This document shows positions 17,933 to 36,548 of a DNA stretch of 64,000 bases, piece by piece. How positions within the stretch are numbered: position 1 is the stretch's first letter; the number at the start of each line of letters is the position of its first letter. The notes below the pieces were generated by a model. That model saw nothing but the letters and a program-made list of their open reading frames with translations, was not told where the DNA came from and searched no databases. Origin of the DNA: a virus; the IMG/VR virus record IMGVR_UViG_3300027974_000020, positions 96,001-160,000 of that record; one strand, 5' to 3'. The position numbers and the translations under genes are program-made.

Positions 17933-17941
17933 GTAAGTAAT

Positions 17942-18012: not shown

Positions 18013-18040
18013 TTTAATCACAAACAAAAGGAGAAGGATA

Positions 18041-18725: not shown

Positions 18726-18773
18726 GAGAGACACTATCTCTCTATAATAAAAAGTGTAATAAGGAGGAATGTT

Positions 18774-19354: not shown

Positions 19355-20806
19355 ATGAAGAATAAACCAACAACAAACAAGGAGGAAACGGTGTATAAAG
19401 ACACTGTCTACGCAAAACTGAGAAGGGCACTTTACAATGTCATTCTCGAAGGTAAATTCATGCAAGAAACTCAATGGGACGAGAATGGACGATGCCACAT
19501 GGTTCAGACATTTGGTGACCGTGGAATTATTGCAACAATGCAACGAAAAGCAAATAACAAAGGATGGGTTGTATTCTTTACTTTGTGCATGTACAAGCAC
19601 GAGCAAAATCACATTCCATTCATGCGTGATTTGAAAGTTAGATTGACTATCAATGAAACTCCATCTGGAGTAAGATTATTGTGGTTTGTTAATGGTAAGC
19701 CACAATGGATGGTAGAAAGTAGTCAAATGGCTTTCTCAAATAAATTCCATCATACTGGACATATAGTTCAAGAAGTTATTAATCAGATCAAGAGTATATA
19801 TTCTCCTGAAGATTTTATACCGATCTTGAAGTACATGCAAAATCCAACATGCAAAGAGTATACTTTGTATGGCCTTAACCAAAGGTGGATGAAAAAGTTA
19901 TCAGGTGGAACAAACCCTAGGCAAATCTTGAATAAAATCTATGGCAAAGATGGGCAGGATGGGTTGAGCAGAAATGCTTTTGGTTCAAATATTGGCAAAA
20001 AGAGTTTTGCTACATTTGCTATAGCAGCTGAGCTAGTGCGATATTTGAAATCATTTCCTACATCATTCTTTGATAAAATCATTCTTGATGACTTTGCAGT
20101 ACAAGATATTGCATACTTGGGGATGATGTATCAAGATGTAACTTACATCCAATATTTCATTAAGTACTTTAATCACAGTAAAATCCAACAAGATTTTATT
20201 AATGCGATTAATAACTTTGAAATGTATCCACATTCTGATTATGACATTTCAGATGCTACAGAACGTTTCTTTAGGATGAGCATTTGGCAGGAAGCACGTG
20301 ATACCGGCAGGATGTTCAAGGAAATAAAGAACAGAGCTGTTCGGAGAAACATCATTGCACTTAAAGGCACGGTTCAAGAAACCCATGACCTTGTCACTAT
20401 CGAGAATGCAAAGCTAGCTCGAGAAGATAAGCAAATCAAATACAGTGATAAGAGCCTTATCCTGGATGGTCAACAGATAACAGATAATATTATTTCTGTT
20501 CTTCCGAAGACAACGTTTGATTTAATATTATGGGGTTCACAACAGCACAACTGCATAGGTAGCTATGGAGATCGTGTTGCTCGTGGCACAGGTGCGATTG
20601 TTGTTGGATTCAAAGATGTGACAACAGATACTTGGGTCGGCCATGCTGAACTCAATAACTATTTCAACAGCTTTGGAAGTTCTTGGACAATCATGCAGTT
20701 GAGGGGCAAATATAACTCAAACCTTGATGAGTCAGATGAAACTACTATTCGTTTGTTTCTGGACAACATACTCAATGCTTGGAATGAAGAGTTAGTATTG
20801 CCATAA
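19355..20806 (+). CDS. PcfJ-like domain protein
   Basis: C-terminal LILWGSQQHNCIGSY...MQLRGKYN; start may be GTG 19391. Confidence 0.75.
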   Translation: MKNKPTTNKEETVYKDTVYAKLRRALYNVILEGKFMQETQWDENGRCHMVQTFGDRGIIATMQRKANNKGWVVFFTLCMYKHEQNHIPFMRDLKVRLTINETPSGVRLLWFVNGKPQWMVESSQMAFSNKFHHTGHIVQEVINQIKSIYSPEDFIPILKYMQNPTCKEYTLYGLNQRWMKKLSGGTNPRQILNKIYGKDGQDGLSRNAFGSNIGKKSFATFAIAAELVRYLKSFPTSFFDKIILDDFAVQDIAYLGMMYQDVTYIQYFIKYFNHSKIQQDFINAINNFEMYPHSDYDISDATERFFRMSIWQEARDTGRMFKEIKNRAVRRNIIALKGTVQETHDLVTIENAKLAREDKQIKYSDKSLILDGQQITDNIISVLPKTTFDLILWGSQQHNCIGSYGDRVARGTGAIVVGFKDVTTDTWVGHAELNNYFNSFGSSWTIMQLRGKYNSNLDESDETTIRLFLDNILNAWNEELVLP

Positions 20807-20936
20807 AGTTTTACCTCAGGTAAATAAGAGAGAAGGGTCCTTCGGGACTCTTTTCTTTTATGCCTAGTTCACAGGTCTCAGATCACTGAGGTCGCTAGGC
20901 AAGTAATACAAACCAATAAACCCTTAAGGAGGGAAT

Positions 20937-23528
20937 ATGGAAGACCAACCGGTCAAACCGCCCGATGCAGCGGCCAATGCATCAACAAAGGAGAAGAAGA
21001 TGCCAAAAGGTATCATCACTTTCCTGAAGGGGCGCTTTCGCGTTCTGACAAATAATCCAACTCCGAAAGAGGAGCAGGCATACAATTTGTCTCAGGAAAC
21101 CAATAAGCCAGTCCCGTTTGGACGGATCAAGACTGTTACTGGATACAATTATGTCCAGGACGTCTACGCTGTTCAGACTGGTGACTTCACCTACTCCTTG
21201 TTGGAGAACAAACTTACTAAGCGGGGAATTAAGTTCCGTTTAGGAGTCGTCTCTAACAAGGATCTATCAGAGCTCGTAATCAAACACGAACTGTTCAGTC
21301 TTAATGACATGATCAGTAAGTGCAGGTTCGCATGGGCTAACGCATCATACACCTTCTTCCTGGAGGTTCAAGACAGTAAAGAAGCATCAAGCTTTGATCT
21401 GTCTGATCTTGGGTTGGAGGTCTATGACTTCAAGAAGACCAGCAAACGTTTGCAGGAAGTGACTCGTATCACTCAAATGCATTCGTCTGGTCCGATTGGC
21501 AAACTTGATTATCGCATGTTGGAAGATCTTCCTGGTGAAGAACTTGCATATGATGGTCCAGTATTTGTCAGCGACTCATTTGCAGTGCGTTCTTGCTTTA
21601 GTATGACTGATGGTCCTGCTAAGAACAAGCACATTGCAATGATCAATCGCGGTAAGATCGGTCCAATGATTGGTCGTATTCTGATGGATCAAGGTGAAGT
21701 TAAGGGCCTTGTCCACGTTGTTCCACGACAACAGCTAGGTGCGGATGTGGTTTTCCACAAATCTGCTCTGAAGCGAGAGTTAAAGACTGACGATGGACGT
21801 TGGCACTATACTGCCTTCAAACACAAGAACCTCCACACTGCTATGTGGGATATGCAAACTATGTTCAATAACCATACCTGGTTAATGACCAAAGAGCAAT
21901 TCACACTGGACATGGAGTCTGTTATCACTGACTTTAACAAGTCTGTTGAGAATGGACAGCTTCCTGACTGGATTATCCACCAGGAAACTGACGGGCACAA
22001 GGATGACTCAGCTCCACAAGTAGAGCATGTGACATCTGGCTGGAAGAAGAGTTACATCCGCTGGCAACAAGCTGGTTTGGATGTAACTGCATCTAGCAAC
22101 CTCGTCTACATGGCTTTCGGATCATTGCTGAACCAAATGCGTTCTGCTTTGAAACGAAACACGTGGTGGGTTCCCATCTCTAATGCCTTTACGGCGACAG
22201 TAACCACCTTCGATGCTTTGGAGGTCATGGGTAACTTTGAGCTGCCTCAGCACAAACGAGACATGGTGTTCTTTGATGAACGCTTTGGCTGTATTGTGCC
22301 GACTAAGCGGTTCATTGAGACTGCTGACCTTCATGACACGTGGGATCAGGACGGTGACCAAGCTAAGTTCATCCGCATTAAACTGTGGAGTTCTTCGCTT
22401 GTTATGAGCCTTGATGGATACAACCATCCGGAACTCAGGGAAACATATGTCATTCCTGCTGATTTGGTAGTGCCAAGCACTCCTGAAGAGGCAATTGATA
22501 TGTGTGTCGTTATCCGTTCACCAAACGGTCCTGGCGGTTACTCTATCGAACGGTTTGATGCTGAAACGATGCCATGGCTTCGTGTAGCGGAAGATCGTGT
22601 ACAGGTAATTGATCTGGCCAAAGCACCAGCTGCAATGAGCACTTTGCTCGTTACAACTGAATGCGGTCAGATTAATAGCTCCACTACCTACAGCAAGGAA
22701 TTGTTCAACCGGGATCATGCTCTTAATATGATCTTGGCACAGATGAATAACCCTGGTGTTGGTAGGTACGCTAATCTCATTATGGTTTGGGCTGCAACAT
22801 TTGGTCCAAGCTATCCTGATAAGTTGCCTGCAATTGGTAACGATGTCATTGACTGTGTTCAACAGACCGCAGACCTTGGTTCATTTGTTCAATTGCAAAG
22901 TGACTACTCAGAAATGGCTGAAAGCATTGCTCAGGCGATCATTGACAGCGGTTGTGGTATTGACCGTTATGTTCTTGAGACCCGGTTCCCTGCACTCAGC
23001 GATGAGACACGCCAAATGCTGGTAGATATTGCAGTAGACGGTCAGTTTACTGAGATGTACAACGCATACAATCAAACTATTACAAAGGTGCAAAATATCG
23101 CATCCAAGGGTAGCTTTGATCTGCGTTTGACATCTGACACTCGTAACAAAGTGTACAATGCAATTCCAGCTATGAGGGAGTCAACCTCTGTTTGGTGCCG
23201 TGGCATCTGGTCAAAGTATGAACGTGAACTCTCAAGGGTTGACGGTAAGTACTCTGAACTGTCCAAGAATACCAATCGCTTTGTAAAGATGTCTGCTGTT
23301 GCACAACGCACAGAAGAAATCTCTACCATCATTGGTGCACTGTTGGATGAAGTCAAGGCAACATCACATCCTGAGCTCTATGCTCTTGCTATCTACCGTT
23401 GGATCATTGATCCGGAACTGACTCGCAGTAAGTATGGCGTGTCTGACCGTATCATCTTCCAGAACGGAATAGACGGACAAGAGACCATCATGGATCTCAT
23501 TATCACAGCAATCAAGGACCTGAAGTAA
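20937..23528 (+). CDS. Putative single-subunit two-barrel RNA polymerase (cellular RdRP/YonO-like), paralogue A
   Basis: KKTSKRL, YDGPVFVS, GRI..GEVKGLV, DVVFHKSALK, catalytic DQDGD (22344-22358), IRSPN, GVGRYAN, VIDCVQ; alternative start ATG 21000. Confidence 0.75.
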   Translation: MEDQPVKPPDAAANASTKEKKMPKGIITFLKGRFRVLTNNPTPKEEQAYNLSQETNKPVPFGRIKTVTGYNYVQDVYAVQTGDFTYSLLENKLTKRGIKFRLGVVSNKDLSELVIKHELFSLNDMISKCRFAWANASYTFFLEVQDSKEASSFDLSDLGLEVYDFKKTSKRLQEVTRITQMHSSGPIGKLDYRMLEDLPGEELAYDGPVFVSDSFAVRSCFSMTDGPAKNKHIAMINRGKIGPMIGRILMDQGEVKGLVHVVPRQQLGADVVFHKSALKRELKTDDGRWHYTAFKHKNLHTAMWDMQTMFNNHTWLMTKEQFTLDMESVITDFNKSVENGQLPDWIIHQETDGHKDDSAPQVEHVTSGWKKSYIRWQQAGLDVTASSNLVYMAFGSLLNQMRSALKRNTWWVPISNAFTATVTTFDALEVMGNFELPQHKRDMVFFDERFGCIVPTKRFIETADLHDTWDQDGDQAKFIRIKLWSSSLVMSLDGYNHPELRETYVIPADLVVPSTPEEAIDMCVVIRSPNGPGGYSIERFDAETMPWLRVAEDRVQVIDLAKAPAAMSTLLVTTECGQINSSTTYSKELFNRDHALNMILAQMNNPGVGRYANLIMVWAATFGPSYPDKLPAIGNDVIDCVQQTADLGSFVQLQSDYSEMAESIAQAIIDSGCGIDRYVLETRFPALSDETRQMLVDIAVDGQFTEMYNAYNQTITKVQNIASKGSFDLRLTSDTRNKVYNAIPAMRESTSVWCRGIWSKYERELSRVDGKYSELSKNTNRFVKMSAVAQRTEEISTIIGALLDEVKATSHPELYALAIYRWIIDPELTRSKYGVSDRIIFQNGIDGQETIMDLIITAIKDLK

Positions 23529-23872
23529 TAGGTTCTTCCGAGTAAAGAGAGAGAGCCCCTGGGGAAACCTAGGGGTTCTTTCTTTATTCCTAGATCCTAG
23601 GTCTTTAGTTATTATATTAATATTTTTTTTTCCTAGATCTTAGGACCCTATTCTAAAGTCACTCGGCGATTGCTTAGCCCTCAGACTCAAAATAGGCTGA
23701 GATTCTAAATCCTCTTTGGCTCATTTCCCTTGACGGGCTTGGGCTAAAAGGGGGGATTTTCTCTCTTCTTTGCTCAATGTCCCTAACGGGTCTGGGCCAA
23801 AAGGGGGGGATTATTCCCTATTATAAAGGCATTCTTGGGAGCCTACAATTCCAAGAGAACAAGGAGACGATT

Positions 23873-24385
23873 GTGACACTCACAGTCTACATTAATACCC
23901 CTCCTGCTGTTCGGGAGAACAAGACCACAGGTGAGACTTTCTTCTCATCTTTGGTTGGCGTTTCTGCCGAACTCAGGGCAACACTTCCACAGGTGGACGT
24001 TCTCAACTGGAACATCCAAAAGTGGGAAAACCTCACGCTTGACGCTGAAGTTGCTGCACTCATTGGCTACACCGCTGATGAGCCAGTTGACGAAGTGGTC
24101 ATTCCAAAGCACGAAGCCATTGACGCCTTCTTCCAATCTGCTGTTGCAGGTGGACTGAAGTTGGCAATCGTTTGTGACTCCGTCCAGCACGGGAAAGTCA
24201 CTGAAGGTGTTAACCCTAACACTAACAAGAACGAGCGCCGTATGGCTATCTGGCCTGAAGGTGAGTTCAGCATTGAACTGTTCAAGCCGACTGCAAAGGC
24301 TAAAGTCAGTGCTGCTACGGCAGACCGCTTGCGTAACAACAAGCAAGAAACAGCAGTAACTTCGGACGGAGATGCACCGTTCTGA
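23873..24385 (+). CDS. Hypothetical protein with SSB-like acidic-aromatic tail
   Basis: AAGGAG RBS before GTG; ends DGDAPF. Confidence 0.7.
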   Translation: MTLTVYINTPPAVRENKTTGETFFSSLVGVSAELRATLPQVDVLNWNIQKWENLTLDAEVAALIGYTADEPVDEVVIPKHEAIDAFFQSAVAGGLKLAIVCDSVQHGKVTEGVNPNTNKNERRMAIWPEGEFSIELFKPTAKAKVSAATADRLRNNKQETAVTSDGDAPF

Positions 24386-24410
24386 GTTGACTGCTCATTC
24401 CCCAAGGTGT

Positions 24411-24460
24411 GGAGTGTGGGACATTTGCTTCGGCGAGTGTCCTACACTCCCCCTTTTTTT
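24411..24460 (+). terminator. Intrinsic terminator
   Basis: GGAGTGTGGGACA...TGTCCTACACTCC followed by T7. Confidence 0.75.
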
Positions 24461-24687
24461 ACTTAGTTCCTCGGCTACTCCTACGGAGTAGGCCTCAGAA
24501 CTAATTCGCTGGCTGACGCCAGCTCAGACTCTTGCTATCCCCTCCTTGGATGTGCTAGCTCAGTAGTATAATAATATTGTATTACTGGGCTAGACATTCT
24601 AAAAAAAAATTCAACTAGTACAATAGTCACCAAAACTCAACTACAAAAGGGGGGTTTTCTAAATATTCCTATCTTGAAAGGATTGTT

Positions 24688-24906
24688 ATGACATCAGAAG
24701 ATACCGTATGGCACATCTCAAGTGCAATCATTGCTGCAATGTTTCCACCTAAATCATGGTGTGAAGAAGCAACCAACGATGAACTTGACAAAGCATTGTT
24801 CAGGGTCCTCAACAGTGAAGGGGAATCAAAAATCTCTCACATCAAAGGACTGAACAAGTTGGATGAAGTCCTTGCTACTCTTGCTAAAGAAGCAGGAATA
24901 AAATAA
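24688..24906 (+). CDS. Hypothetical protein
   Basis: GAAAGGA RBS. Confidence 0.65.
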   Translation: MTSEDTVWHISSAIIAAMFPPKSWCEEATNDELDKALFRVLNSEGESKISHIKGLNKLDEVLATLAKEAGIK

Positions 24907-25127
24907 TGTCAACAATAAGAATTAACACAAACACGTGTTTGCATTGCAAGCAAGAAGGTTTCATCGAAATGTCAGAAGATGAATACAATCGAGGCATCAA
25001 TGCATTCAACGAAGGAGAATTAATTCAATGTGCATTCCCAGGTCTATCTGTAGATCAAAGGGAACAAGTCATTTCTGGAACTCATCCAGAGTGTTGGAAT
25101 GAACTGTTCGCAGAAAAAGAACATTAG
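24906..25127 (+). CDS. Small phage zinc-binding protein
   Basis: CLHC...IQCAFPGL..DQRE..ISGTHPECW. Confidence 0.75.
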   Translation: MSTIRINTNTCLHCKQEGFIEMSEDEYNRGINAFNEGELIQCAFPGLSVDQREQVISGTHPECWNELFAEKEH

Positions 25128-25191
25128 ATCTACGGGCATTTGTTTGTAAAAGCTGACCCTTTTTGGGTTGCGCAGACATTTGCGCCGTATA

Positions 25192-25287
25192 CAGGTAATC
25201 AACACCTGAAAACCCCTCGGTAGTCCTATCGAGATGAAGTTGATTATGGATAGACGAGCTATAGCGTCTTTAAACATTTAGGATAGC
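25192..25287 (+). ncRNA. Predicted pseudoknotted intergenic RNA
   Basis: CAGGT/ACCTG with AATCAAC/GTTGATT; AGACG/CGTCT with GCTAT/ATAGC. Confidence 0.5.
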
Positions 25288-25505
25288 CTAGGCCACTGGT
25301 ACAAGGGCGACACAAGAACACTGTCTGGTATATGCAGAAGAAGCGTTGTATCAATATACTTTTAAAAAATAAGACTAGTACCCTACGTAAAAGGGGGGAA
25401 GGGCAATATGAAAACAATAACATTAATATTAACATCATTCATCGCCGGCGGACTTACCATGATCGTATGGGTTCGCAGGATGTTCAAAACAATGGAAGGA
25501 CAATT

Positions 25506-25691
25506 ATGAGTTACAAAAAGTTATTTTGGGGCTATGTAACACTAAACGTTATTTGGGGATTTCTTTATGGAATCTACCTTGGTGGCAAACAAGTCCAAGC
25601 AAGCGACAGGATCAGTGAGTTCAAGTTCAGCGATAAAATGCAAGAAATGGTCAAGTACTACGAAAACAAGAATAAGGAACAAGTAGCATGA
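25506..25691 (+). CDS. Small membrane protein
   Basis: Start refined to ATG 25506; one TM. Confidence 0.55.
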   Translation: MSYKKLFWGYVTLNVIWGFLYGIYLGGKQVQASDRISEFKFSDKMQEMVKYYENKNKEQVA

Positions 25692-25955
25692 TGATCCAAG
25701 TCATAGATGGTGAACTACGTACAGGCGTATGTGCAATATGTCACAAAAGAAAACCAACCATAACTGTATCAATAAACACTAAAGGAAGTCGGATACTCAC
25801 CACTGAAGATTGGTGCTTAGAAGACTTTAATAGTCTAAAAGAAAGAATATCACTAAAATGAAGAAACTCACAGCAATCACTACAGCAATAGCATTTGTTC
25901 TTGCCGGCTTAGCCGTATATCTCAAGAAAATGAGACTATTCAAAAAGGATAAATC

Positions 25956-26195
25956 ATGAACTCAATACTTATTATTTCACTTGTATTGTCTCATCTACTA
26001 GCCATAGCCATAAGCGCAAAATGGACATCTAAACTCATCTACACTGACATTAAAACTAATTACGATGTTATTGAGTTTGTGCGGGTGATAGAAGAAGTTC
26101 AATCTAGAAGAAACCACCCCACAGCTAGGCCTCAGTTCTATGATTGGGAAACGGAAGAAAAGTTCGAAAACATCATCGATCAATTCGACAAATAA
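25956..26195 (+). CDS. Small membrane protein
   Basis: RBS; N-terminal TM; RRNHPT motif. Confidence 0.65.
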   Translation: MNSILIISLVLSHLLAIAISAKWTSKLIYTDIKTNYDVIEFVRVIEEVQSRRNHPTARPQFYDWETEEKFENIIDQFDK

Positions 26196-26307
26196 TCATT
26201 CTAAACCACCTCCTATAAAAGGGGGGCAATCATAGAAAGGGGTGATGAATGTTCGATTGGTTCTTTGATTTAATAGCTGATCTAATAGATGCAATATTCG
26301 GAAACTA

Positions 26308-26535
26308 ATGAAAGGAAAAAGTATGCGTAAGCTTGGAGAACTGCTTGGTAAAACCACAGCAGGAAGTAAGGAACTGGTTAAAAGTTCAATTACTGGTTCT
26401 AAGAAAGTGGCTTCTGTCACTAAAACAGCAGTAGTCGATGCAAAATCTGACTTTGTTGCTGGCTTCAAAGCTACTTCTGGTACTCCTGTTGTTCCAACAG
26501 TAGATACAATAGAAGTTATTGAAGTAACGGAGTAA
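26308..26535 (+). CDS. Hypothetical protein
   Basis: ORF; probable start 26323. Confidence 0.6.
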   Translation: MKGKSMRKLGELLGKTTAGSKELVKSSITGSKKVASVTKTAVVDAKSDFVAGFKATSGTPVVPTVDTIEVIEVTE

Positions 26536-26625
26536 ACCCAAAAGGGGGGATTGCGTATCTAGTGCAATCTCTTTATATAATATCACATAACAACATATCC
26601 CATAATATCACAGAAAGATAATATC

Positions 26626-27669
26626 ATGTCAACACTAAGCAATATGTTTGGTATCAATAGCGATGATCTCGCTCTTGTTACCGAAAATCCCGATGCGTTC
26701 AAAAGCCAAAGCAATACCACGCTACTCCGTAAGGATAAGCGGGTAAAGGCAAAAGGCTCGATCAACAACATCGAAATCCCAACCTACGTCACACTTGAGA
26801 GTGCCTTCTGGACTCGTCTCACTGTGCGTGACCACTACATCAACCGTGCAGGCGCAGAAGCTCGTACCAGCCAAGTATTTGGTGGTGTCTTCAAGCCAGT
26901 CAAAATGAAGGTTGAAGTTGAAATCAACGGTAAAACTATGCTCTTGCAAGAGCTCATCCGCGACCTCATCGCTGAAACCTCTGCAGGCAAGTCAGCCGAC
27001 GAAATCAATCGTATCATTGAAGATACAAATCTTCTTCGTGGCTTTGCCGATGGTATGCCGTTGATGTTCCAACAAATGGGTGCCAGCGAAAACGGCTTCC
27101 AGCATGCAATTGAAATCTTCCGTTCCGCAGGAGCAGTAGATGACCTTGCTTCATTGAAGGGTAACAGCCGATTCCACACCTGCTATGACATGAAACAGAA
27201 ACAGGGTCTTGAAGTTGTAGCCTTTGAACTTGGTTCAGCAGACCGCACACAATCAAAAACAGGACAGGGCTTTACTGACATCATTGATGCAGTAATCAGC
27301 AATCTTGTTCGTGTCATCGGTCACAAAACAACTGCTGCTATTCTTCGTAAAGAAATTGAAGAAAAAGTTGCAAGTCTTTCGCAAGGTGACATCAAGGCTA
27401 AGCAGACTAAGATTGATTCTGAATTGGCAATGAGCCGTCAGTATCCAGTCATTTGGTCTGGTGCTGCGCGTCAGAAAGACACAACAGAAACTGGCGATAT
27501 GGTTACCCGTGATAAGTACAATGCTGTCAATGCACCTTGTGGTCGTTGGACTGTACTTCTCAATGGTCAAACAGAAGATCTGGATGTATGGTCAAATTCG
27601 ACCAAGCAACCAATCAATGCTGTAACCACCGCAACTGCAGTTGTAGATACAACGGTTAAACCGTTCTAA
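26626..27669 (+). CDS. Hypothetical protein (347 aa)
   Basis: Long ORF with biased codon usage; ends KPF; hairpin downstream. Confidence 0.85.
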   Translation: MSTLSNMFGINSDDLALVTENPDAFKSQSNTTLLRKDKRVKAKGSINNIEIPTYVTLESAFWTRLTVRDHYINRAGAEARTSQVFGGVFKPVKMKVEVEINGKTMLLQELIRDLIAETSAGKSADEINRIIEDTNLLRGFADGMPLMFQQMGASENGFQHAIEIFRSAGAVDDLASLKGNSRFHTCYDMKQKQGLEVVAFELGSADRTQSKTGQGFTDIIDAVISNLVRVIGHKTTAAILRKEIEEKVASLSQGDIKAKQTKIDSELAMSRQYPVIWSGAARQKDTTETGDMVTRDKYNAVNAPCGRWTVLLNGQTEDLDVWSNSTKQPINAVTTATAVVDTTVKPF

Positions 27670-27778
27670 CTATAACCAACATTTAAGTTCTGCTCTGGAA
27701 TATGTTAACCTCATTGCATATTCCAGAGTAGACTTAATTAAAAAAATAACACTAGACCTTTAATGAAAGGAAGGCTCT

Positions 27779-28060
27779 ATGTATATATTAGCATTAGCAA
27801 TCCTTCTTGGACTCGCTGTGGCAACCGTCACAGAAATTGTCTATGAAGTTGCACCAGCTATAAGTAAGATTAAGTACCTCGGCAACCCAGATCTTCTGTT
27901 CCCACTGCTTGCAATCCTCGCAGTATGGGCAACTGATACATCTATCCTAGGTGCCTATGGTCTTAACGGTGCAGAATGGTTTGACGTTGTAGGTTCAGGT
28001 TTGGCTGTCGCCGCTGCAACCAAAGCAACTGATGCCGTAGTTAACTATCTTAACAAATAG
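27779..28060 (+). CDS. Holin-like small membrane protein (3 TM)
   Basis: Three hydrophobic segments; own terminator. Confidence 0.6.
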   Translation: MYILALAILLGLAVATVTEIVYEVAPAISKIKYLGNPDLLFPLLAILAVWATDTSILGAYGLNGAEWFDVVGSGLAVAAATKATDAVVNYLNK

Positions 28061-28162
28061 TAAACTATAAACAATGATGTTAGCGTGGGTGGTAGAACTC
28101 TATCTCTATCACCCACACTAATCATAATATTATTTTTTTATTCTAACTCAAAAGGAAATAAG

Positions 28163-28426
28163 ATGAGCACACCAACTGAAGTAGTCGAAATCCAACGTTG
28201 GATGAAAGACGCAGCATGTAAGGGGAACACTGAAGGTGACTGGTTCCCAGAAGCCCCAGGCAATAACTCTGGAGTAAAAATAGCTTTAGCAATATGTAAA
28301 GATTGTCTAGTCAAACAAGAATGCTTTGACTATGCAATAACAAGACCAGAACTATCAGGTATCTGGGGTGGAGTAACATCACGCAAGCGTGGATCCTTAC
28401 GAGCCGAAAGGAAAAAAGGTGAGTGA
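28163..28426 (+). CDS. whiB: WhiB-family Fe-S transcription factor
   Basis: WMKDAAC...WFP...ICKDCLVKQEC...GIWGG. Confidence 0.93.
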   Translation: MSTPTEVVEIQRWMKDAACKGNTEGDWFPEAPGNNSGVKIALAICKDCLVKQECFDYAITRPELSGIWGGVTSRKRGSLRAERKKGE

Positions 28427-28796
28427 ATACCCAACAGATTATCCTCGCAATGGTTTCCATATCTGTCATGGGTGTGGGTCTATGGCTCCGCATCATAGTC
28501 AAGAAAGCCTTCCAGATAATGGATGGACATTCGATCTCAACCTATTCGGATACTATGGCGGTTTTACAGATCCCATTGGAGAAGAACCACAAAGAATAAG
28601 GTTATGCCACGACTGTGTGCTTAAGTTTCTAAACACATTTCCTCTATTAGGAGTACTCATAGGATCAGGCTGTCATAGTATGTCTGGCCCCAATGAAAAA
28701 CCATGCTGCAAATATGCATGGAAACTAGACTCCATAGAGAATAATCATATCACGTGGATAGCCACTGAAGATGGTGAATCTTGGACTGTGTTGTAA
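28419..28796 (+). CDS. Cys-rich hypothetical protein
   Basis: CHGC, GYYGGFTD, LCHDC. Confidence 0.7.
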   Translation: MSEYPTDYPRNGFHICHGCGSMAPHHSQESLPDNGWTFDLNLFGYYGGFTDPIGEEPQRIRLCHDCVLKFLNTFPLLGVLIGSGCHSMSGPNEKPCCKYAWKLDSIENNHITWIATEDGESWTVL

Positions 28797-29080
28797 TGCT
28801 TCTTCCCTATAGGCTTATCTATATATGTCTATAGGGAATAAGTACCCTTTGCCCTTGTTTTCGGGGGGGACCCGCGAAGCGGGGGGGTCCCCGATATTAA
28901 AATGACAACCCTTGTGGTTGTCTTAAAAAATAGAGGTAGTCTTTAGACTACCGAATAAAAAATAAGCCTAGGCTTTAGTCCGCCGGCTTAAAAAACTTTT
29001 TCTACTACGTGTTGTCATAGGCATGTTATACCTGCTATGATATACATATCAAGTAGTACACGACGATAGGAGTAATACAG

Positions 29081-29302
29081 ATGCCTCGGCAACATCAATC
29101 AAAAGCAATCAAACGGGTCTTTTCAGAACTGACAAGACTCGGCTTTGTAGTAGAGCAAAAAAGATCAGGGTCGTATAGGATTGTACCCCCTTCAACAATC
29201 CAAGGACCCGTATACACAACTCACGGTACAGAGTCGGCATTGCACCCAATGCGCCGTGACTTTAAAAAATATTATAATATAAACTTAAACTCTATCTCCT
29301 AG
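29081..29302 (+). CDS. HicA-like (dsRBD-fold) small protein
   Basis: ELTRLGFVVEQKRSGSYRI...VYTTHGT; AGGAG RBS. Confidence 0.5.
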   Translation: MPRQHQSKAIKRVFSELTRLGFVVEQKRSGSYRIVPPSTIQGPVYTTHGTESALHPMRRDFKKYYNINLNSIS

Positions 29303-29606
29303 AGATGCGGTTTACTCCTTGTAGGGTGTAGGGTAATATCAGAGCAATCTGAGTTACCTTACACCTTAATAATAAGATTTAACTATAAGAATAAGAATAA
29401 GAATTAACTTAAAATAAGAATAAATTGTTATCAATATAAAGAATTGGACCCCTCTCAGGGGTGGACCCATTTATAACATATATAAAGTATACAAAGTGTA
29501 CATATATGTTCCCCCACATGTCCCCATTTATCCCCATTCTTCTATCGTTATGCACATAACTCAAAACAATGCTTAATTACTCCTAGAAAGAATATGAGGA
29601 TTACTC

Positions 29607-30053
29607 ATGAATAACCCTAAGATTGTAGTAGAACAGTTCCTATCAGATCTAATCAATGATGTTTACCCTACCCTTAACAAAGATATGTCTTATCTCTATG
29701 GAATAGAGAATAAGCAATGTTATGTTTCGGGGGCGGCTCAACTGTTAACTACAAAAAAAGACATATACCAAATACTAGAAGATGATGCGACAGAAGCTTA
29801 TACAGCTATGTATGATATTCTCGCATTCTTCATTTGGGGATGGGCTGCACCCCTCCAATCAGATGAAGACCTCAACGTTCCACCTAGTCAACATCCAGAC
29901 AAAGTAAGAATATTCTTATCTATGTTCTCCTATAGTGATGGAACTATAATGTCAGCGTTAAAACATTGTGAAGATCCAAATATGCAGTTGCAATTCCAAT
30001 ATGGAGAAACGCAAGGTCCATTATATGAAACCCTATCTCAACTATATAACTAA
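29607..30053 (+). CDS. Hypothetical protein
   Basis: GWAAP...PPSQHPDK.R motif; RBS. Confidence 0.75.
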   Translation: MNNPKIVVEQFLSDLINDVYPTLNKDMSYLYGIENKQCYVSGAAQLLTTKKDIYQILEDDATEAYTAMYDILAFFIWGWAAPLQSDEDLNVPPSQHPDKVRIFLSMFSYSDGTIMSALKHCEDPNMQLQFQYGETQGPLYETLSQLYN

Positions 30054-30096
30054 TCTCTAAAACGTCAAAAAATTACAAAAAATTTTGCGGCGGATC

Positions 30097-30169
<73 letters not shown>

Positions 30170-30388
30170 CGAGGCATGGTAATCTAAAGCAATGGCTTAT
30201 TACCAAGCCACCAGCAGTGTAATCCCCGGGCATGAATTGCCCTCGTGTGACAGTAACCAATCAAAGATTGAGTCTCTACCTCCAGTTAAGAATCTCTTTG
30301 TGTCCACCCAAATTACCCCATAATTGGGTGCCGGGGTTTACACCCCTTTTTTTAGAAAGGCAATATCTAGTATATTAGAAGGAATGAA

Positions 30389-30868
30389 ATGACTATCTTA
30401 GAACAAGAAAGTAAACTTAAGTCGTTAGGCACAAGAGTGCCTTTGACGGATGATCCTAAAATTAGGGGCATCTTAGCAGTCCATTACAGCCTTTGGCAGG
30501 GCCGCGAATCTATTGAGCATAATGGCAAACAACTGACGGTTTACCAGCCGGCACATAAAGGATATTCATCCGTAGTTATCCCTTCAGAATCGGGTTATAA
30601 TTTTCTGTGGATTACACAGAATATGGAACCCTCTAAAGATAGCTACGGTTCAATGGCTATCCGTAGATCTCAACAGCTTGGGGACAACAAAATGATCACC
30701 TGGATTGTAGACAATACTGGTGGTAAATTTGTTTATGTAGGTAGCATACATACTACCCATTACTTCAACGGAGACCAAGATGTTATAATCGAAAGATACG
30801 TAGAAGGACAGACTGAAGTAGTCTACACAAACATGCCGTTCTATTATCAAGCTAAATCCAAATATTAA
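30389..30868 (+). CDS. Hypothetical protein
   Basis: 159-aa ORF with RBS. Confidence 0.75.
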   Translation: MTILEQESKLKSLGTRVPLTDDPKIRGILAVHYSLWQGRESIEHNGKQLTVYQPAHKGYSSVVIPSESGYNFLWITQNMEPSKDSYGSMAIRRSQQLGDNKMITWIVDNTGGKFVYVGSIHTTHYFNGDQDVIIERYVEGQTEVVYTNMPFYYQAKSKY

Positions 30869-31040
30869 AATTGTTATACCCCTAAATTTATATAGGTTTG
30901 CATGCCAACCCTATATAATAATATATGAGTTGTAACAATAAAAAAAACATTATCAACAAACTTGCTTAATTTTCATTTTTATACTATAATATTTATATAC
31001 CCTTATACACCTAAATAACCCACAGAAAACGGAGATTGAA

Positions 31041-31256
31041 ATGGCTAAGCCATCAAAAACCCCACTTATTAATCAATTCATTAATTCCAATACAGACAAA
31101 ATTTATTCCACAAAAGAAATGTGTGTACAAATTGGCGTTAGCCTTCCAACACTTCTTAGTTATATTAAGAGCAACACAGAGCGTTTTGAACTTGTTCAAT
31201 ACGGTGTTTACAAGATCGTTAAGAGTGGTCAACAACCTATTGCAGTTGAGATTTAA
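31041..31256 (+). CDS. Small helix-turn-helix protein
   Basis: STKEMCVQIGVSLPTLLSYI. Confidence 0.65.
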   Translation: MAKPSKTPLINQFINSNTDKIYSTKEMCVQIGVSLPTLLSYIKSNTERFELVQYGVYKIVKSGQQPIAVEI

Positions 31257-31430
31257 TAGTTAGTTTATTTAAAAATAAAGTTACTATTATTGCATCATCT
31301 ATAAACATAGACGGTGCGCAGTCAAGTCTGCTTTAAAACAAGATCTTTTAAGTTAAAAGATTAAGTAGACCCAACCAAGGAGTATTGGTATAAATACTTA
31401 CAATAACAAGAAATGTGATATAATAAATAC

Positions 31431-31610
31431 AATGCCCGTAACATGCGGGCAGGGAAATAATCCCTAACGTAACAGAGTAATACTGTGAAGTCGGAGATGG
31501 CTAACCTGCCAACTGTGACGGGCATTTCGTATCTGTCCGCACATCTTCGGTTTCGCAACCTGCGCCGTACTAATGGTGTTTCGCAACACCAGACAAAGAC
31601 GAAAAGGAGC
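31431..31610 (+). promoter_or_regulatory. Structured 5' leader of transglycosylase gene
   Basis: AATGCCCGT/ACGGGCATT long stem competing with local TGCCCGTA/TGCGGGCA hairpin; two GTTTCGCAAC hairpins; TTCGT..TGTC/GACA..ACGAA stem adjoining the AAGGAG RBS. Confidence 0.55.
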
Positions 31611-31619
31611 GAACACGAA

Positions 31620-32210
31620 ATGCAAGTAAAATACAAAAAAGCAATGCTAGTATCTATTGTTGCAGGAATATTCCTGTCTTCTGGTATAGCCAATTCTAGT
31701 GCTACTAGGATTGAACAACCAGTACAGGAACCTCCCAGTACCGTCAAGGTACTAACTGCACCCGATAGATTAGACAAATATAATGCAATTGATTCAATTG
31801 TGTTTAAACATGGAGATATATCTTGGCTTCCATTATTAGCCAAAGAGGCTGGTTGGCCCCGTAAAACGTGGGACAAACTAGGCGATATTATTCTCCGTGA
31901 ATCAGGTGGATGCCCCAATCGAATTGGTGGTTCCATAGTTGACAAAAATTGTAATGTAGTTGGGCACTCAGGTGCTGCAAATAAATCCGATTCAGGATTG
32001 CTACAAATCAATGGAGTCAATTGGGATCCCAAAAGAGATGGCAGACAACTACTTTGTGCAGATTATAGAATCTGTACTCAAGAACAACTCCTGGATCCGG
32101 TTACCAACTTAGTTGCAGGCTATGTCCTGTATCAAAAATCTGGTTGGGATCCATGGGACCCATGTGCATGGGGGCCTAGTTTTGCCCATAGGTGTAAAAC
32201 TGGCAAATAA
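31620..32210 (+). CDS. Secreted lytic transglycosylase (SLT/lysozyme-like)
   Basis: Signal peptide; IILRESGG (catalytic Glu), DSGLLQIN, LLDPVTNL, GWDPW; start refined to ATG 31620. Confidence 0.85.
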   Translation: MQVKYKKAMLVSIVAGIFLSSGIANSSATRIEQPVQEPPSTVKVLTAPDRLDKYNAIDSIVFKHGDISWLPLLAKEAGWPRKTWDKLGDIILRESGGCPNRIGGSIVDKNCNVVGHSGAANKSDSGLLQINGVNWDPKRDGRQLLCADYRICTQEQLLDPVTNLVAGYVLYQKSGWDPWDPCAWGPSFAHRCKTGK

Positions 32211-32308
32211 TTACAAATAAATATTATGAATAAAAGGGGGGGCCTTGTGCCCCTCCTTTTTGTTAATTCAAAACAAAGCATCCCATCGAACTAAAGAAAG
32301 GCTAGTTC

Positions 32309-32731
32309 ATGCTACTAACTATGATGTTAATCTTAGCTATCACTTCAACTCTAGTAGAGTTGTTGATTGCTTCTAAAGTTAAATGGTGGAGACAGAAGTC
32401 TCACGACAGCAAACTGTTCAACATGTTGAACTCGCTATTCCTATCATTCTTGATAGGTTTAGCATTCAGTGCCTCTGGCTTAATTGCCATGGGTGCTGGC
32501 GTAATATCAACCGTGTTGTCCGTTCCCGGCTATCAATTCCTGTATTGGAATTATGATGGCCCAATGGCACAAAAACATGGTGGTAATATGATGTTACATT
32601 TGAAATCTAAATGGTTTCAAACAATTAAGGATTTCTTTACACTTGTGTATAAAATCCTGAGAATAATCACATTCCCAATTTGGGGAACTAGATGGGCAGT
32701 AACTAAACTAAAGACAATCAAAACTAAATAA
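32309..32731 (+). CDS. Membrane protein
   Basis: Several hydrophobic segments; GAAAGG RBS. Confidence 0.7.
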   Translation: MLLTMMLILAITSTLVELLIASKVKWWRQKSHDSKLFNMLNSLFLSFLIGLAFSASGLIAMGAGVISTVLSVPGYQFLYWNYDGPMAQKHGGNMMLHLKSKWFQTIKDFFTLVYKILRIITFPIWGTRWAVTKLKTIKTK

Positions 32732-32759
32732 AAAAATCGAGTAGACCGTAGGAGGTAGC

Positions 32760-35321
32760 GTGTCACTAATCACATACAGACCAATTGTTCGGCTTCGCTC
32801 AGAAGCAAATGGGCCACTTCGCAGCATGAATGATTACCAGTTCGGATTTTACGATACTGGTTTTCTTCGTCAAGCTATGAAGTCTATCCCTAACGCAACA
32901 AATTATCGAATGGCTACTATGCCCATTCCACAGAATCCACACGAAGCTCGGATTGCTGAACAGATTATTAAGCACCCCGATGTATGCTATGCCGTAGTTG
33001 ATAAAAATAAGATTGCAATTGTTATCATAGAGAACAATCCAGGATGGTTGTCAATCTTTAAAGAAATGGGCTATGAAGTCTTTGCCGGCGATAAGACTGG
33101 CAAACGACTCAAGACCTTTCATCGTCCAGCATTGTTGAACGCTCACTTTGAAAAAGATGAGATTAAAGTTCACGTTGCTGATTCAACAGACTATTGCTCA
33201 TATGACTTTGAGAATGGAGAAGTTGCAAAACAATTTTGCGACCCATCCATTACTAAACGCCTTCTTGATGGCGGTTTTGTAATTTCTCGCAAGTTCGTTA
33301 AAAGAGCAATAGAAAATATTCCAATGTATCATCCAGAAGATACAACTGACAACAAAGAATATTATTATGATTGGCGTATTCGTAAGAAGCTTGTAAAGAA
33401 TCTTATGAAAGCTCCAATCCTTAATGTTCGCATTGTCTTTGAAGGAGGCTTCCTCAAGGGCAATGCAATCGTTGTTGACGAAGAACAAATGCCAGATGAT
33501 ATTGATATTATTACCAGTAGTGAAAATATTAAATCTGAAATAAAATATCACAATGGTTTTCAATTTCTGGCCGAACCTCAAGGTTCCCATGAACGAGTCA
33601 TCACTGACGATCAAACTGTAATCAATTTGGATAATCTTTTCATCACATCCGATATGGATTTCTGGTTAACAGAAGAATATGAGAAGATGTTCAATGATGC
33701 TATTAATTCTAAACTATTGACTAATTGGCAAGAAATTTACAAACGTCAGTTTCGTAATGTTGCATCAGCAGAAGATGAAGAAGCTAACTCTCGCATGTCC
33801 TATGTGGGATATCGTTGGGTGGCAAGCGGTATGAAAATTACCGATTCTCCATGGCTCTTTGAGACATTAGCAACAAGTCATGCAAAGCCATTTCAAAAGC
33901 GTATTCCAATTCCTTGCACAGTTTATGAGCAAGTAATTCCAGAATCTTTAGCTCGTGTGGCTGGCTATGACATTGATGTTGAGACAGAAACTATTCAGCG
34001 TATTAATGAACTTGGAGTTCATGTTGTCAATGATCTTGACTGGCTTGAGATGTATGAATCTCATGGCGGTCACGACGAGGACGACTACTTCAAATGCTTT
34101 TATCGCACAATGGTTGGTGGACAACAATTCGATGGCGAACGTGTCGTCATCATTTGTCGTTCTCCTAATGGCTATGGTGAGTATTCAATCTTTAGATATG
34201 TAGAAGGACAATGGTCTCCAACATGGCATAAAGCAGATGGTACTCCAATTCAGTTTCCTGAAGTTTCTGGACGTGGATGGCCAACTCGTTTGAGTGAAGC
34301 TATCTACCAGAATGAAGTTAAATATGACAAACTTCCATCTGAGTATCAAAATAAAGTAAAACCAAATGGTCATTATACTCCAGACGACGTTATCCACGAC
34401 ATGCGTGTAGCTATGGGTGGTGGTAATGTCGGTGGATATGTAAACGCCGTTATGGCTCATTCCCTTGTTTTACACACTCATCGTCCAAACCAACTCTGCT
34501 CCATGGAGAAAGCAATCGACAAATGTATCAATCCAGATTATATCGAAGATGCTCTTGCTATCGATGCCGAAGCTAGAGCTATCGTTAGAGAAATCATTGA
34601 TTCTAAACAACCAATCGATTCTGAATTCTGGAGCCGCAGAGGCTTTTCACGTTATCTAAAAGATGGTGAAACAGTAGATCTTTTCGAAGGAAAGATGAGT
34701 CACATGAACACATTGTGTTCAGAAAAATATCGTGACTACTGTTCTCGAATTCGTGAATGGTCACAAGCAAATGCTGGCCCACCACAGATAGTTCATGATC
34801 TTGGTAAGCGTTTGTATTTTCACGCACTGCCTATTGTAAGAAACTTTAGAAGTACTATTTATACAGTAAATACTTCTGAAGCTACTCAAGCAACAGGTAC
34901 AATTGTTCGCAATTCTTGGGAAGAATTGTATTCTGATATTGTAAATATTGTTAATTCTTTTGATAGAGAAGAAGACAAGCATGATTTTATTATTGCTATG
35001 TATTCTGTATCTTTAAAAGTACCAACTTCTAGTGGTAAAATAACAGATCAAATTGTTATGAATCGATTTGTATATCCTTATCTAGAAGCAGCTTTACAAT
35101 TTTATGGCATTGCAAATACCGTTGTATTTTCTCCTACCGAAGATGGAGACGTTGATATATTCAACGTTGAAAACAAAGAATGGAGATATCCTAATCCAAA
35201 TGGAGATATTGTAGTTTACAATGATCCAATTGAATTTCAAAATGCTCATCGAATAGATAGCACAGTTGTTTTTACAACTCAAGAACCACCAGTCAGACAA
35301 TCTAATATATCCAAATATTAA
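32760..35321 (+). CDS. Putative single-subunit two-barrel RNA polymerase (cellular RdRP/YonO-like), paralogue B
   Basis: DKTGKRL, LDGGFVIS, NVRI..GFLKGNA, DIITSSENIK, RIPIP, GGHDEDD (Asp residues 34074-34085), CRSPN, NVGGYVN, AIDKC; collinear with paralogue A. Confidence 0.7.
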   Translation: MSLITYRPIVRLRSEANGPLRSMNDYQFGFYDTGFLRQAMKSIPNATNYRMATMPIPQNPHEARIAEQIIKHPDVCYAVVDKNKIAIVIIENNPGWLSIFKEMGYEVFAGDKTGKRLKTFHRPALLNAHFEKDEIKVHVADSTDYCSYDFENGEVAKQFCDPSITKRLLDGGFVISRKFVKRAIENIPMYHPEDTTDNKEYYYDWRIRKKLVKNLMKAPILNVRIVFEGGFLKGNAIVVDEEQMPDDIDIITSSENIKSEIKYHNGFQFLAEPQGSHERVITDDQTVINLDNLFITSDMDFWLTEEYEKMFNDAINSKLLTNWQEIYKRQFRNVASAEDEEANSRMSYVGYRWVASGMKITDSPWLFETLATSHAKPFQKRIPIPCTVYEQVIPESLARVAGYDIDVETETIQRINELGVHVVNDLDWLEMYESHGGHDEDDYFKCFYRTMVGGQQFDGERVVIICRSPNGYGEYSIFRYVEGQWSPTWHKADGTPIQFPEVSGRGWPTRLSEAIYQNEVKYDKLPSEYQNKVKPNGHYTPDDVIHDMRVAMGGGNVGGYVNAVMAHSLVLHTHRPNQLCSMEKAIDKCINPDYIEDALAIDAEARAIVREIIDSKQPIDSEFWSRRGFSRYLKDGETVDLFEGKMSHMNTLCSEKYRDYCSRIREWSQANAGPPQIVHDLGKRLYFHALPIVRNFRSTIYTVNTSEATQATGTIVRNSWEELYSDIVNIVNSFDREEDKHDFIIAMYSVSLKVPTSSGKITDQIVMNRFVYPYLEAALQFYGIANTVVFSPTEDGDVDIFNVENKEWRYPNPNGDIVVYNDPIEFQNAHRIDSTVVFTTQEPPVRQSNISKY

Positions 35322-35376
35322 TAACTAACAGTGTGAGTATATTCTGCTCACACTGTTAGTATAAATAAAGAAAGGA

Positions 35377-35763
35377 GTGCTCGTGAGCACTACTACATCA
35401 TATACCAATACACATCCAATTGATGAAATGTTTAATAATATTCGTAATATCATTTCATCTCAACCTATTAGGTCAGATTATATTCCATATGTTGAAGAAA
35501 GAAATTCTGTTTCTTACAAACTTGGAAAATATAGCCGCAAAACTGTATCTTACTTTAAGAGATCAGAGACAAAAGCCTCTATGTTAATTGCAACATGGGC
35601 TGTAGAGAGTTTAGCATACGCTCTTACATTCCTAGTTCTAGTAACTTCTGGAGCTTTTATCACTGCAGCTCTTTGGACAGCTCTTTATGGGTATATTTCA
35701 TATGCATTCTTTGCTATGTTGCGCGACGCAGCTGTAGCAAATGTAATTTTTACAAAGAAATAA
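35377..35763 (+). CDS. Membrane protein
   Basis: Two C-terminal TM segments. Confidence 0.7.
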   Translation: MLVSTTTSYTNTHPIDEMFNNIRNIISSQPIRSDYIPYVEERNSVSYKLGKYSRKTVSYFKRSETKASMLIATWAVESLAYALTFLVLVTSGAFITAALWTALYGYISYAFFAMLRDAAVANVIFTKK

Positions 35764-35773
35764 TTACACAACA

Positions 35774-36376
35774 ATGAACTATTCTCAAATTAAATCCTAT
35801 GTTTCTGATCCAGAACAAGAGATATTGTCAATAAAATCTTCTTTTGAAGAACACGTATCTTTAGCTGGAAAAGAAACTTATCGCCCAAGAGTTATGTTCT
35901 ATAACTTTTTTGGCGAAAAACTTTTTGGCATAGTCTCTAGGCCATACGTTGATCAAACTGATTATATTAGTTCTATCGCAGAAATGATGTATTCTTATAC
36001 TGCTTTAACTGCATCTTCTGCTGTTATAGTTTTAGAAAGTAACATCACTAAAAATGGAAACCTAATTGGCAGTTGTCTAAATGCTTATTTGGTATCATCA
36101 GATACTGCTCACGCAGTAACCATTCCTTATGATCATGCCCCAGATAATAAAGTTATTTGGAAATCTTCTGAAGAAATTATTAAAGAAGTAGATATGAATA
36201 CAAATTCAGGCATGCCTTTGGAAATGCTAGAATTATCATATGCTTTTTCGCATATTGATGATGCTCCATTTTCAATGCCAGAATTGTTATCGTATTATAC
36301 TTCTATGGGGTTTATATTTAAATCCTTTAAGAAACTTAATTATACATACATAGATTATGCAGAAAATAATACATAG
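35774..36376 (+). CDS. Hypothetical protein
   Basis: 200-aa ORF in operon. Confidence 0.75.
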   Translation: MNYSQIKSYVSDPEQEILSIKSSFEEHVSLAGKETYRPRVMFYNFFGEKLFGIVSRPYVDQTDYISSIAEMMYSYTALTASSAVIVLESNITKNGNLIGSCLNAYLVSSDTAHAVTIPYDHAPDNKVIWKSSEEIIKEVDMNTNSGMPLEMLELSYAFSHIDDAPFSMPELLSYYTSMGFIFKSFKKLNYTYIDYAENNT

Positions 36377-36548
36377 ATTATGTCTTACTCAAACTCCCCA
36401 GAAAAAAAGCAAAAGCTTTATTGCTCAATTAAAGATAAAACTGTTATAGTGTACACTAAAACAGAACCACTTACCGATGAACAATTAGAAGACATGATGG
36501 TAGATTCTTTACCACATGGATATACGGAACCTTTTATCTAAGGAAAAC

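Follow-up and report, generated by a model that had tools for sequence, protein, structure and literature searches.

Two-barrel RNA polymerases transcribe all cellular genomes, and single-chain forms of them are known from tailed phages, including pairs in which one enzyme travels in the virion and the other does not. In the Thermus phage P23-45, an ancient duplication within one genome has left gp64, the non-virion enzyme (8F72; gp62 of P74-26 is 8F5M), and gp96, the virion enzyme, which is fused to the tape measure (8H2M/8H2N); one of the two is delivered by the virion, the other is encoded early, and they act in sequence. The P23-45 protein P23p64 (L004:5291-7141:-, NC_009803), labelled 'head protein' in RefSeq, is the one that we take to be gp64, the non-virion RNA polymerase established by experiment. 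The eukaryotic enzymes QDE-1 and RDR2 (2J7N, 7Y7P-T, 7W82/7W84, 7ROZ; PF05183) work in RNA silencing, where their templates are RNA or single-stranded DNA. Phage phi14:2, which is crAss-like, encodes a virion RNA polymerase, gp66 (2,180 amino acids (aa); 6VR4), with a QDE-1-like two-barrel core in a large virion protein whose gene lies in a block of giant genes for virion proteins, these genes being fused in some relatives. YonO of the Bacillus prophage SPbeta is a phage single-chain two-barrel enzyme of ~840 residues, described as DNA-dependent (PMC5467207) and placed in the broad clade resembling RNA-dependent RNA polymerases (RdRPs; PMC7824862). Here we examine two genes of similar size, A and B, in a 64,000-nucleotide stretch of DNA (hereafter the window) that comprises bases 96001-160000 of the 169,197-base virus record IMGVR_UViG_3300027974_000020, which derives from an uncultured lake phage with a genome of ~200 kb and has an estimated completeness of 80%.

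20937-23528, + strand: gene A (P0001), homologue of single-chain two-barrel RNA polymerases, ATG start, 863 aa (from the open reading frame (ORF), its translation and an AlphaFold2 (AF2) model)
32760-35321, + strand: gene B (P0002), homologue of single-chain two-barrel RNA polymerases, GTG start, 853 aa (from the same three sources)

We hold with moderate confidence that A and B are ancient paralogues of a phage-only two-barrel family and would be active DNA-dependent RNA polymerases used at successive stages, and that a third copy, C, encoded in the same record, is a candidate virion enzyme. The analysis shows the homology of A and B, their predicted fold class, the conservation of their residues, the positions of sequence motifs and the co-occurrence of the paralogues; we infer catalytic activity, a DNA template, the promoter class that each enzyme would read and the packaging of C.

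Predicted fold and paralogy of A and B

An earlier note on this stretch had described A and B as two paralogous RNA polymerases, YonO-like or related to cellular RdRPs, with a common series of motifs. Both ORFs were recovered at the positions that it gave, and all of the motifs that it listed are present in both proteins, in the order claimed. In A, the N-terminal half carries KKTSKRL (166-172), DGPVFVS (206-212), R247..KG257, D270..K279 and MQT (306-308), and the C-terminal half DQDGD (470-474), RSPN (527-530), GVGRYAN (607-613) and VIDC (637-640). The corresponding motifs of B are DKTGKRL (111-117), DGGFVIS (170-176), R224..KG234, D249..K258 and DQT (284-286), followed by DEDD (439-442), RSPN (467-470), NVGGYVN (556-562) and AIDK (585-588).

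Pairwise BLASTP aligned A with B end to end (E value (E) 2e-6, 18% identity across 639 residues), and family profiles made from 35 homologues of A (profile A1) and 38 homologues of B (profile A2) aligned in hhalign over 690 columns, with a probability of 99.9% and E 5.9e-35. This likeness is far above chance, and A and B are true, distant paralogues. Their duplication is old: in a tree of 123 members, the clades that hold them are separate and deep, with 58 rows (support 100) for A and 29 rows (support 98) for B. While the paralogy claimed in the earlier note is thereby upheld, its count of two has to be raised to three, the third paralogue lying in the structural arm of the genome.

AF2 models computed with the family alignments as input were confident, with a predicted local distance difference test score (pLDDT) of 86.8 and a predicted template modelling score (pTM) of 0.83 for A, and a pLDDT of 85.3 and a pTM of 0.81 for B. 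When the models were compared with the PDB by Foldseek, every significant match was a single-chain two-barrel RNA polymerase, namely RDR2 of maize and Arabidopsis, QDE-1 of Neurospora and Thielavia, 8F72 and 8F5M, and then P23-45 gp96 and phi14:2 gp66. For A, RDR2 (E 8.9e-7) and QDE-1 (E 1e-6) were followed by P74 gp62 and the P23-45-type gp64; for B, QDE-1 (E 4.5e-10) was followed by RDR2 and gp64/gp62. Structural alignment with VIA-align gave A a Z score of 12.8 to RDR2 (583 residues aligned), ~10 to QDE-1, 8.6-8.8 to gp62/gp64 and 7.5 to gp96, and B scores of 12.0 to RDR2, 9.9 to QDE-1, 9.2 to gp64 (root-mean-square deviation (rmsd) 5.0 over 412 residues) and 7.4 to gp96. Taking both models together, the best matches are thus RDR2, at Z 12-12.8 with 566-583 residues aligned, and QDE-1, at Z 9-10 with ~600, with gp64/gp62 at Z 8.6-9.2, gp96 at Z 7.3-7.6 (rmsd 4.1-4.5 Å over ~310-330 residues) and, for A, a weak match to phi14:2 gp66 (Z 5.1-5.2); there was no solved YonO chain among the matches.

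A scan of A against 48,161 representative chains, made independently of Foldseek, placed RDR2, QDE-1, P74 gp62 and gp96 (twice) as its top five (Z 12.7-7.5), after which the matches were single domains built as a double-psi beta-barrel (DPBB), at Z ~5, and in the structure comparison of B the first 16 rows were all single-chain two-barrel polymerases. The predicted models of A and B superpose on solved members of the single-chain RdRP-like clade, with nothing else scoring comparably. The first barrel was also recognised independently, because residues 180-296 of A and 121-273 of B match isolated or designed DPBB domains (Z 4-5.5 for the two proteins; for A, Z ~5 with 78-82 of ~86 residues aligned).

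21474-21824, + strand: first DPBB of A (beta-like, product-binding), residues 180-296, aligning to isolated and designed DPBB domains

The models therefore support assigning A and B to the RdRP/QDE-1 structural class of single-chain two-barrel RNA polymerases, and at the level of fold the core claim of the earlier note is borne out by the top matches of both Foldseek and VIA-align.

Sequence comparison gave no such tie. The RdRP family of Pfam (PF05183) had no hmmscan match to A or B at E up to 1 in a search against Pfam-A, the Pfam and PHROGs results for the two proteins were noise only, searches of PDB sequences (phmmer, with single sequences and with the A1 and A3 profiles) returned no relevant chain, and 50,697 phage records searched by tblastn yielded nothing for either protein. 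By hhalign, profiles A1 and A2 reached a probability of 0.2-0.4% against YonO (L013:19356-21875:-, SPbeta) and 0.2% against P23-45 gp64, with no detectable sequence similarity to the P23-45 enzymes (probability <1%), so that the likeness to gp64 is structural only. The label 'YonO-like/cellular RdRP' accordingly stands as a structural class and finds no sequence signal in the PF05183, YonO or gp64 comparisons.

What sequence does reveal is a large family of its own. A profile search of 1.84 billion representatives returned 343 clusters (50% identity) at E up to 1e-3, all unnamed, and the copies held by NCBI, JGI and UniProt are all named 'hypothetical' or 'uncharacterized'. The A/B family is large, unnamed in all of the libraries searched, and found in metagenomes only. 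In eight IMG/VR records an A-like gene and a B-like gene occur on one contig, and five complete or nearly complete genomes of 202-211 kb, the complete ones with terminal repeats, each have, besides a B-like gene, another paralogue 10-15 kb upstream.

Active-site residues and their order

Conservation was counted in alignments of 123 and 68 diverse members, the latter a superfamily alignment. In both, K170, R171, G207, K256, K279, D470, D472, D474, R527, P529 and D639 (A numbering) are invariant, and D206 and R247 nearly so. In QDE-1, R671 belongs to the auxiliary helix, D709, R738, K743 and K767 to the first barrel, D1007/D1009/D1011 form the metal triad, and N1087 and D1116 lie in the bridge helix and the trigger loop (PMC9508822). 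The conserved residues of A and B parallel this series, including the triad, in a correspondence drawn from order and rough spacing rather than from superposition; D206, R247, K256 and K279 of A would be the counterparts of D709, R738, K743 and K767. Likewise, G609..N613 of A is followed 26 residues on by D639, compared with 29 residues between N1087 and D1116, a parallel of order and spacing only, and in the models the G..N and D639-type motifs of both proteins fall in helices. By this correspondence, the order of elements in QDE-1 and RDR2, from the auxiliary helix, the first barrel and the connector to the catalytic region, the bridge helix and the trigger-loop Asp, would also be that of A and B.

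Read in this way, the beta-like barrel would hold the RNA 3' end and the phosphates of the nucleoside triphosphate (in A, through D206, R247, K256 and K279), and in the beta'-like catalytic region the invariant acidic triad (DQDGD in A, DEDD in B) would bind two Mg ions. Each chain would also contribute an invariant R-S-P loop, a bridge-helix motif (G..N) and a trigger-loop Asp (the ID/AID motif).

22344-22358, + strand: candidate catalytic loop of A, D470-Q-D472-G-D474, three Asp invariant in 123 members
34074-34085, + strand: candidate catalytic loop of B, D439-E-D441-D442 (in HGGHDEDD), three Asp invariant in 38 B-family sequences
22515-22523, + strand: invariant R527-S-P529 of A (RSPNG), candidate Pro-gate loop in non-canonical order, R527 and P529 in 123/123
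34158-34166, + strand: invariant R467-S-P469 of B, from the family alignments

To our knowledge, a metal loop spelled DxDxD and a set order of active-site elements have been treated as universal in two-barrel RNA polymerases. In the A/B family the acidic loop is spelled DxDD in 113 of the 123 members, DxDGD in eight (the small clade of A and one other) and DxDDD in two, with HGGWDLDD as the consensus; in the models it lies in a strand-strand-helix-loop-strand arrangement like that of the canonical DxDGD site. The DEDD of B is therefore the family norm and not a decayed form, and it is the DQDGD of A that is rare. With a mean column identity of 63%, the B family is also more conserved than the A family (42%), from which it follows that B is not decaying.

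These counts bear on a second option raised in the earlier note, an active/regulatory pair, which we take to mean that A, with its canonical DQDGD, would be the only polymerase and that B would work with it, whether as a partner lacking activity, as a specificity subunit or in an autoinhibited form. It is true that B departs from the textbook DxDxD spacing, that A and B co-occur in many genomes and that QDE-1 is itself dimeric (PMC9508822). However, the prevalence of DxDD speaks against such a division of labour: it includes most of the large clade to which A itself belongs, DxDGD having arisen in two small clades only, and were DxDD inactive, almost the whole family would be inactive. B moreover retains every invariant active-site residue, and C also reads GGFDLDD. 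We regard this option as very unlikely.

The second departure is one of order. The invariant R-S-P lies downstream of the last loop Asp, by 53 residues in A and by 25 in B, whereas in the characterised enzymes an R-x-P lies upstream of the loop: RRP at -36 in gp64 (loop DYDGD), RNP at -45 in gp96 (DFDGD), RSP at -48 in YonO (DNDGD) and R-S-P at -45 in QDE-1 and RDR2 (GGDxDGD). In QDE-1 this element, R962-S-P964, is the Pro-gate loop, 45 residues before D1007 (PMC9508822). The equivalent upstream place in the A/B family holds a weakly conserved [W/R/F/K]-x-P, with P in 106/123 and R in 28/123; B has R381-I-P383 there. The motif series thus departs from the canonical order, and the R-S-P is either an element peculiar to the family or a sign of a catalytic barrel with another threading order. 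No description of a DxDD two-barrel polymerase, nor of a set of three paralogues, was found in the literature searched.

Third paralogue and probable staged expression

Transcription of the record is leftward over bases 1-101.9 kb, which hold the terminase, portal, tail-fibre and baseplate genes as well as giant ORFs of 3,504, 2,207, 1,922 and 1,510 codons, and rightward over bases 102-169 kb, the arm in which both A and B lie. A superfamily-profile hmmsearch of all ORFs of the record found a third homologue in the leftward arm, between the ORFs of 2,207 and 3,504 codons.

Genome 32335-36991 (outside the window), - strand: paralogue C, split in two genes, found by superfamily-profile hmmsearch

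The first of the two genes, C-N (P0363, L007:4727-6991:-; 754 codons, genome 34727-36991), was found at E 1.6e-10 and aligned in hhalign with a probability of 97.2% and E 4.6e-11; its FDG, GIK, GMKEE, MPN, GGFDLDD and RQPSG words align to invariant positions of the family. C-N stops directly after RQPSG, and this stop is conserved, since 18 homologues of C-N span 748-766 residues. The next ORF, C-C (P0364, L007:2335-4623:-; 762 aa), contains the words GVYVNRTM and ETAID, which resemble the bridge-helix and trigger-loop motifs, together with a hydrophobic membrane-like segment and a Pro/Gly-rich tail. The superfamily profile did not match the single C-C sequence in hhalign, and what ties C-C to the polymerase are fused homologues and an extension, of low confidence, of the profile alignment: C is one ORF in two genomes (G001, 1,691 aa; G007, 2,033 aa) and is split elsewhere along its length in others, and an alignment including the fused forms matched the superfamily over 605 columns (97.8%, E 7.9e-13), with low confidence past the catalytic loop. 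The ESM Atlas held no usable match for C-N. GGFDLDD and RQP(T/S)G are kept in all copies of C, and homologues of C occur in all five related genomes tested. By these profile comparisons, C is a third and far more diverged paralogue.

Its place in the arm with the terminase, portal, tail-fibre and baseplate genes makes C the best candidate for a virion-delivered, injected polymerase, packaging being suggested by the gene context. Among described systems, phi14:2 gp66 is the best analogue of C and of its fused forms of 1,691-2,033 aa; gp66 differs in its DFDID loop and its cleft-blocking domain, and additional compact paralogues of the A/B type are not reported in crAss-like phages. In comparison with P23-45, this phage has three paralogues, and its structural-arm copy is split in two genes instead of being fused to a tape measure. 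The giant ORF next to C (3,504 aa, L006:6350-16864:-, genome 21350-31864) matches the giant PHROG 20474, which bears the label 'endolysin' (E 5e-124), without matching any Pfam family, and could be a tape-measure or ejection protein.

An assignment of the virion role to B has to be weighed here, under which B, made at a middle or late stage, would be packaged, enter the cell at the next infection and read the early cassettes, A would be the non-virion enzyme for later genes, and C a diverged structural or ejection protein that does not polymerise. In phiKZ-like phages and P23-45, the non-virion enzyme is encoded early and the virion enzyme later (PMC7598289); A is likewise an early-class gene and B is not, and a membrane protein, o140, travels with B. 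Yet B lies in the non-structural arm beside a helicase and not among virion genes, and it is C that sits between giant ORFs, as does the crAss-like virion RNA polymerase (bioRxiv 10.1101/2020.03.07.982082). C also keeps the full invariant set (DG, K, K.E, GGFDLDD, RQP.G, G..VN, AVD) across genomes that otherwise differ greatly, which argues that it is still an enzyme. We consider a packaged B unlikely.

In our preferred reading, in which C is the candidate virion enzyme, A and B belong to different expression units and for this reason probably act at successive stages. A lies in an array of early cassettes marked by a terminator followed by a TTTAT(G)MCTAG-N6-GG motif. Strictly counted, this motif has 12 copies between window positions 12501 and 23583, on the + strand throughout. 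A is the last but one of these cassettes, and the last copy of the motif precedes an ORF (23777-24385) that ends at a strong terminator (24411-24450).

20857-20875, + strand: early-class motif TTTATGCCTAG-N6-GG, directly after a terminator hairpin and T-run, 80 nt upstream of the ATG of A
23583-23601, + strand: last copy of the early-class motif, 55 nt downstream of the stop of A

Relatives in which A is ~42% identical have 7-8 copies of the early motif, all upstream of the A gene and none between A and B. B belongs to a separate unit, which is preceded by a terminator and a different motif and which opens with o140.

32232-32260, + strand: hairpin of 12 pairs (7 GC) resembling an intrinsic terminator, at the close of the unit that precedes the B operon
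32264-32272, + strand: TAATTCAAA, a motif that may serve the B operon as a second-class promoter element, conserved in the closest relatives
32309-32731, + strand: o140, small, very hydrophobic membrane-type protein (from its translation), first gene of the B unit
36516-38240, + strand: SNF2/ResIII-type helicase, 574 aa (Pfam ResIII 2.3e-34, Helicase_C 6e-15)

The TAATTCAAA motif has four intergenic + strand copies in the rightward arm, 42-98 nt upstream of gene starts, and the closest relatives (L032-L035, L037 and L039) have kept it at the equivalent spot ahead of the B operon. The block o347 ... o140-B-o200-SNF2/ResIII helicase is conserved in ~45 loci. Within it, o140, which has no Pfam or PHROG match, adjoins B or lies close to it in nearly every one of 45 B loci (43-67% identity); this linkage by itself is not taken as evidence that o140 binds B. 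The helicase, the best-conserved gene of the block (58-77% identity), follows 2.5-9 kb downstream, again in nearly every locus.

The constancy of this helicase, together with the fact that A and B find their best structural matches in eukaryotic RdRPs, could be taken to mean that one or both enzymes are not transcriptases at all, and serve instead as replication primases, makers of R-loops or RNA-templated polymerases producing double-stranded RNA; the link of B to an SNF2/ResIII helicase recalls the need of QDE-1 for a helicase and RPA. Against this, the characterised phage members of the class (YonO, phi14:2 gp66, P23-45 gp64 and gp96) are all DNA-dependent transcriptases, and the arrays of phage-specific promoter-like motifs need a reader. 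Neither the beta' domain (PF00623) nor sigma-70 region 2 was found in the 169-kb record, with working positive controls in both searches, so that no other RNA polymerase or sigma factor was detected by them; a search for a T7-like RNA polymerase (PF00940) gave no match but is uninformative, its control having matched nowhere either. We judge a role outside transcription to be quite improbable.

Under the reading that we favour, A and B would most likely be active DNA-dependent RNA polymerases that make transcription of the phage independent of the host enzyme. C would be injected with the virion and read the early cassettes, thereby starting the programme; A would be made with the early class, from behind its terminator and promoter-like motif; and B, in its conserved operon with o140, o200 and the SNF2-type helicase, would follow at a later stage. 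Given the paired A and B polymerases and the split copy C in the virion arm, the phage probably runs its own staged transcription, and a temporal cascade, as proposed in the earlier note, is plausible in that it fits the promoter-like motifs.

Several results weigh against this reading. The fold assignment rests on predicted structures, with template modelling (TM) scores of 0.3-0.46 and whole-chain rmsd of 6-7 Å, and no sequence method ties A or B to any characterised RNA polymerase. Isolated DPBB domains never match the second region of A or B but only the first barrel, so that a canonical second barrel is putative. The DxDD of B and of most of the family contrasts with the DxDxD of all characterised two-barrel RNA polymerases compared, and the invariant R-S-P of the family comes after the loop and not at the canonical pre-loop place. 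On the side of regulation, TAATTCAAA is not enriched over shuffled controls and a late-class motif was not found, and the record itself is just ~80% complete. De novo searches for middle and late promoter words (exact k-mers, and one-mismatch k-mers against shuffles) likewise gave none above the null, and a scan of 20.5-38.5 kb for the sigma-70 consensus returned 64 sites against 51 +/- 8 in shuffles, which is not clearly above them. The words TACTATAA and TGGTATAA were considered as a promoter class and rejected, as they resemble ordinary -10 elements and occur at the expected frequency.

A more specific form of the programme is a host-independent relay, in which C would read the early cassettes including A, A the middle class including the B operon, and B the late and structural arm including C, and all three enzymes would have an active site unlike that of any characterised two-barrel polymerase, with a DxDD-type metal loop and an R-x-P gate after it, in effect a re-threaded catalytic barrel. 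We offer this as a tentative and rather doubtful elaboration.

Wider significance and further observations

Should A and B prove active, their family of 343 clusters would show how much an ancient active site tolerates, in the form of DxDD loops and an R-S-P after the loop, and would add to the toolbox polymerases that are compact (~850 residues) and have promoters of their own. With three paralogues in one genome, the two-enzyme scheme of P23-45 and phiKZ-like phages would be extended, giving a concrete, testable model of how abundant freshwater phages of ~200 kb could transcribe in stages and independently of the host. Because the best structural matches are RDR2 and QDE-1, the family also bears on the proposed phage descent of the eukaryotic polymerases of RNA interference.

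Some members of the family depart from the compact form. Three homologues in the A family (P0050, P0054 and P0066; 1,041-1,068 aa) contain a PF08719 domain, named 'ribA/ribD-fused uncharacterized protein' by JGI, and in P0050 the polymerase core starts at residue 162, which puts the extra sequence at the N-terminus; other members reach 1,100-1,975 aa through extensions. In one genome (G007, IMGVR_UViG_3300042868_009074; 267,766 bases) a B-like gene occurs twice, at 210285-212600 and, containing two in-frame TAA codons, at 1456-3915; a true duplication could explain this, as could a broken copy or the joining of two phages in the assembly.

Two observations concern the surroundings of A. Its immediate upstream neighbour (window 19355-20806) encodes a protein of 483 aa in which a PcfJ-like domain was recognised (PF14284, E 2e-11), and in several relatives a weak homologue also lies upstream of A. 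The region of the early cassettes and gene A (window 12000-30000) has a G+C content of 39-46%, compared with 29-36% across much of the remaining window, and that of A (42-46%) is clearly above that of B (36-39%).

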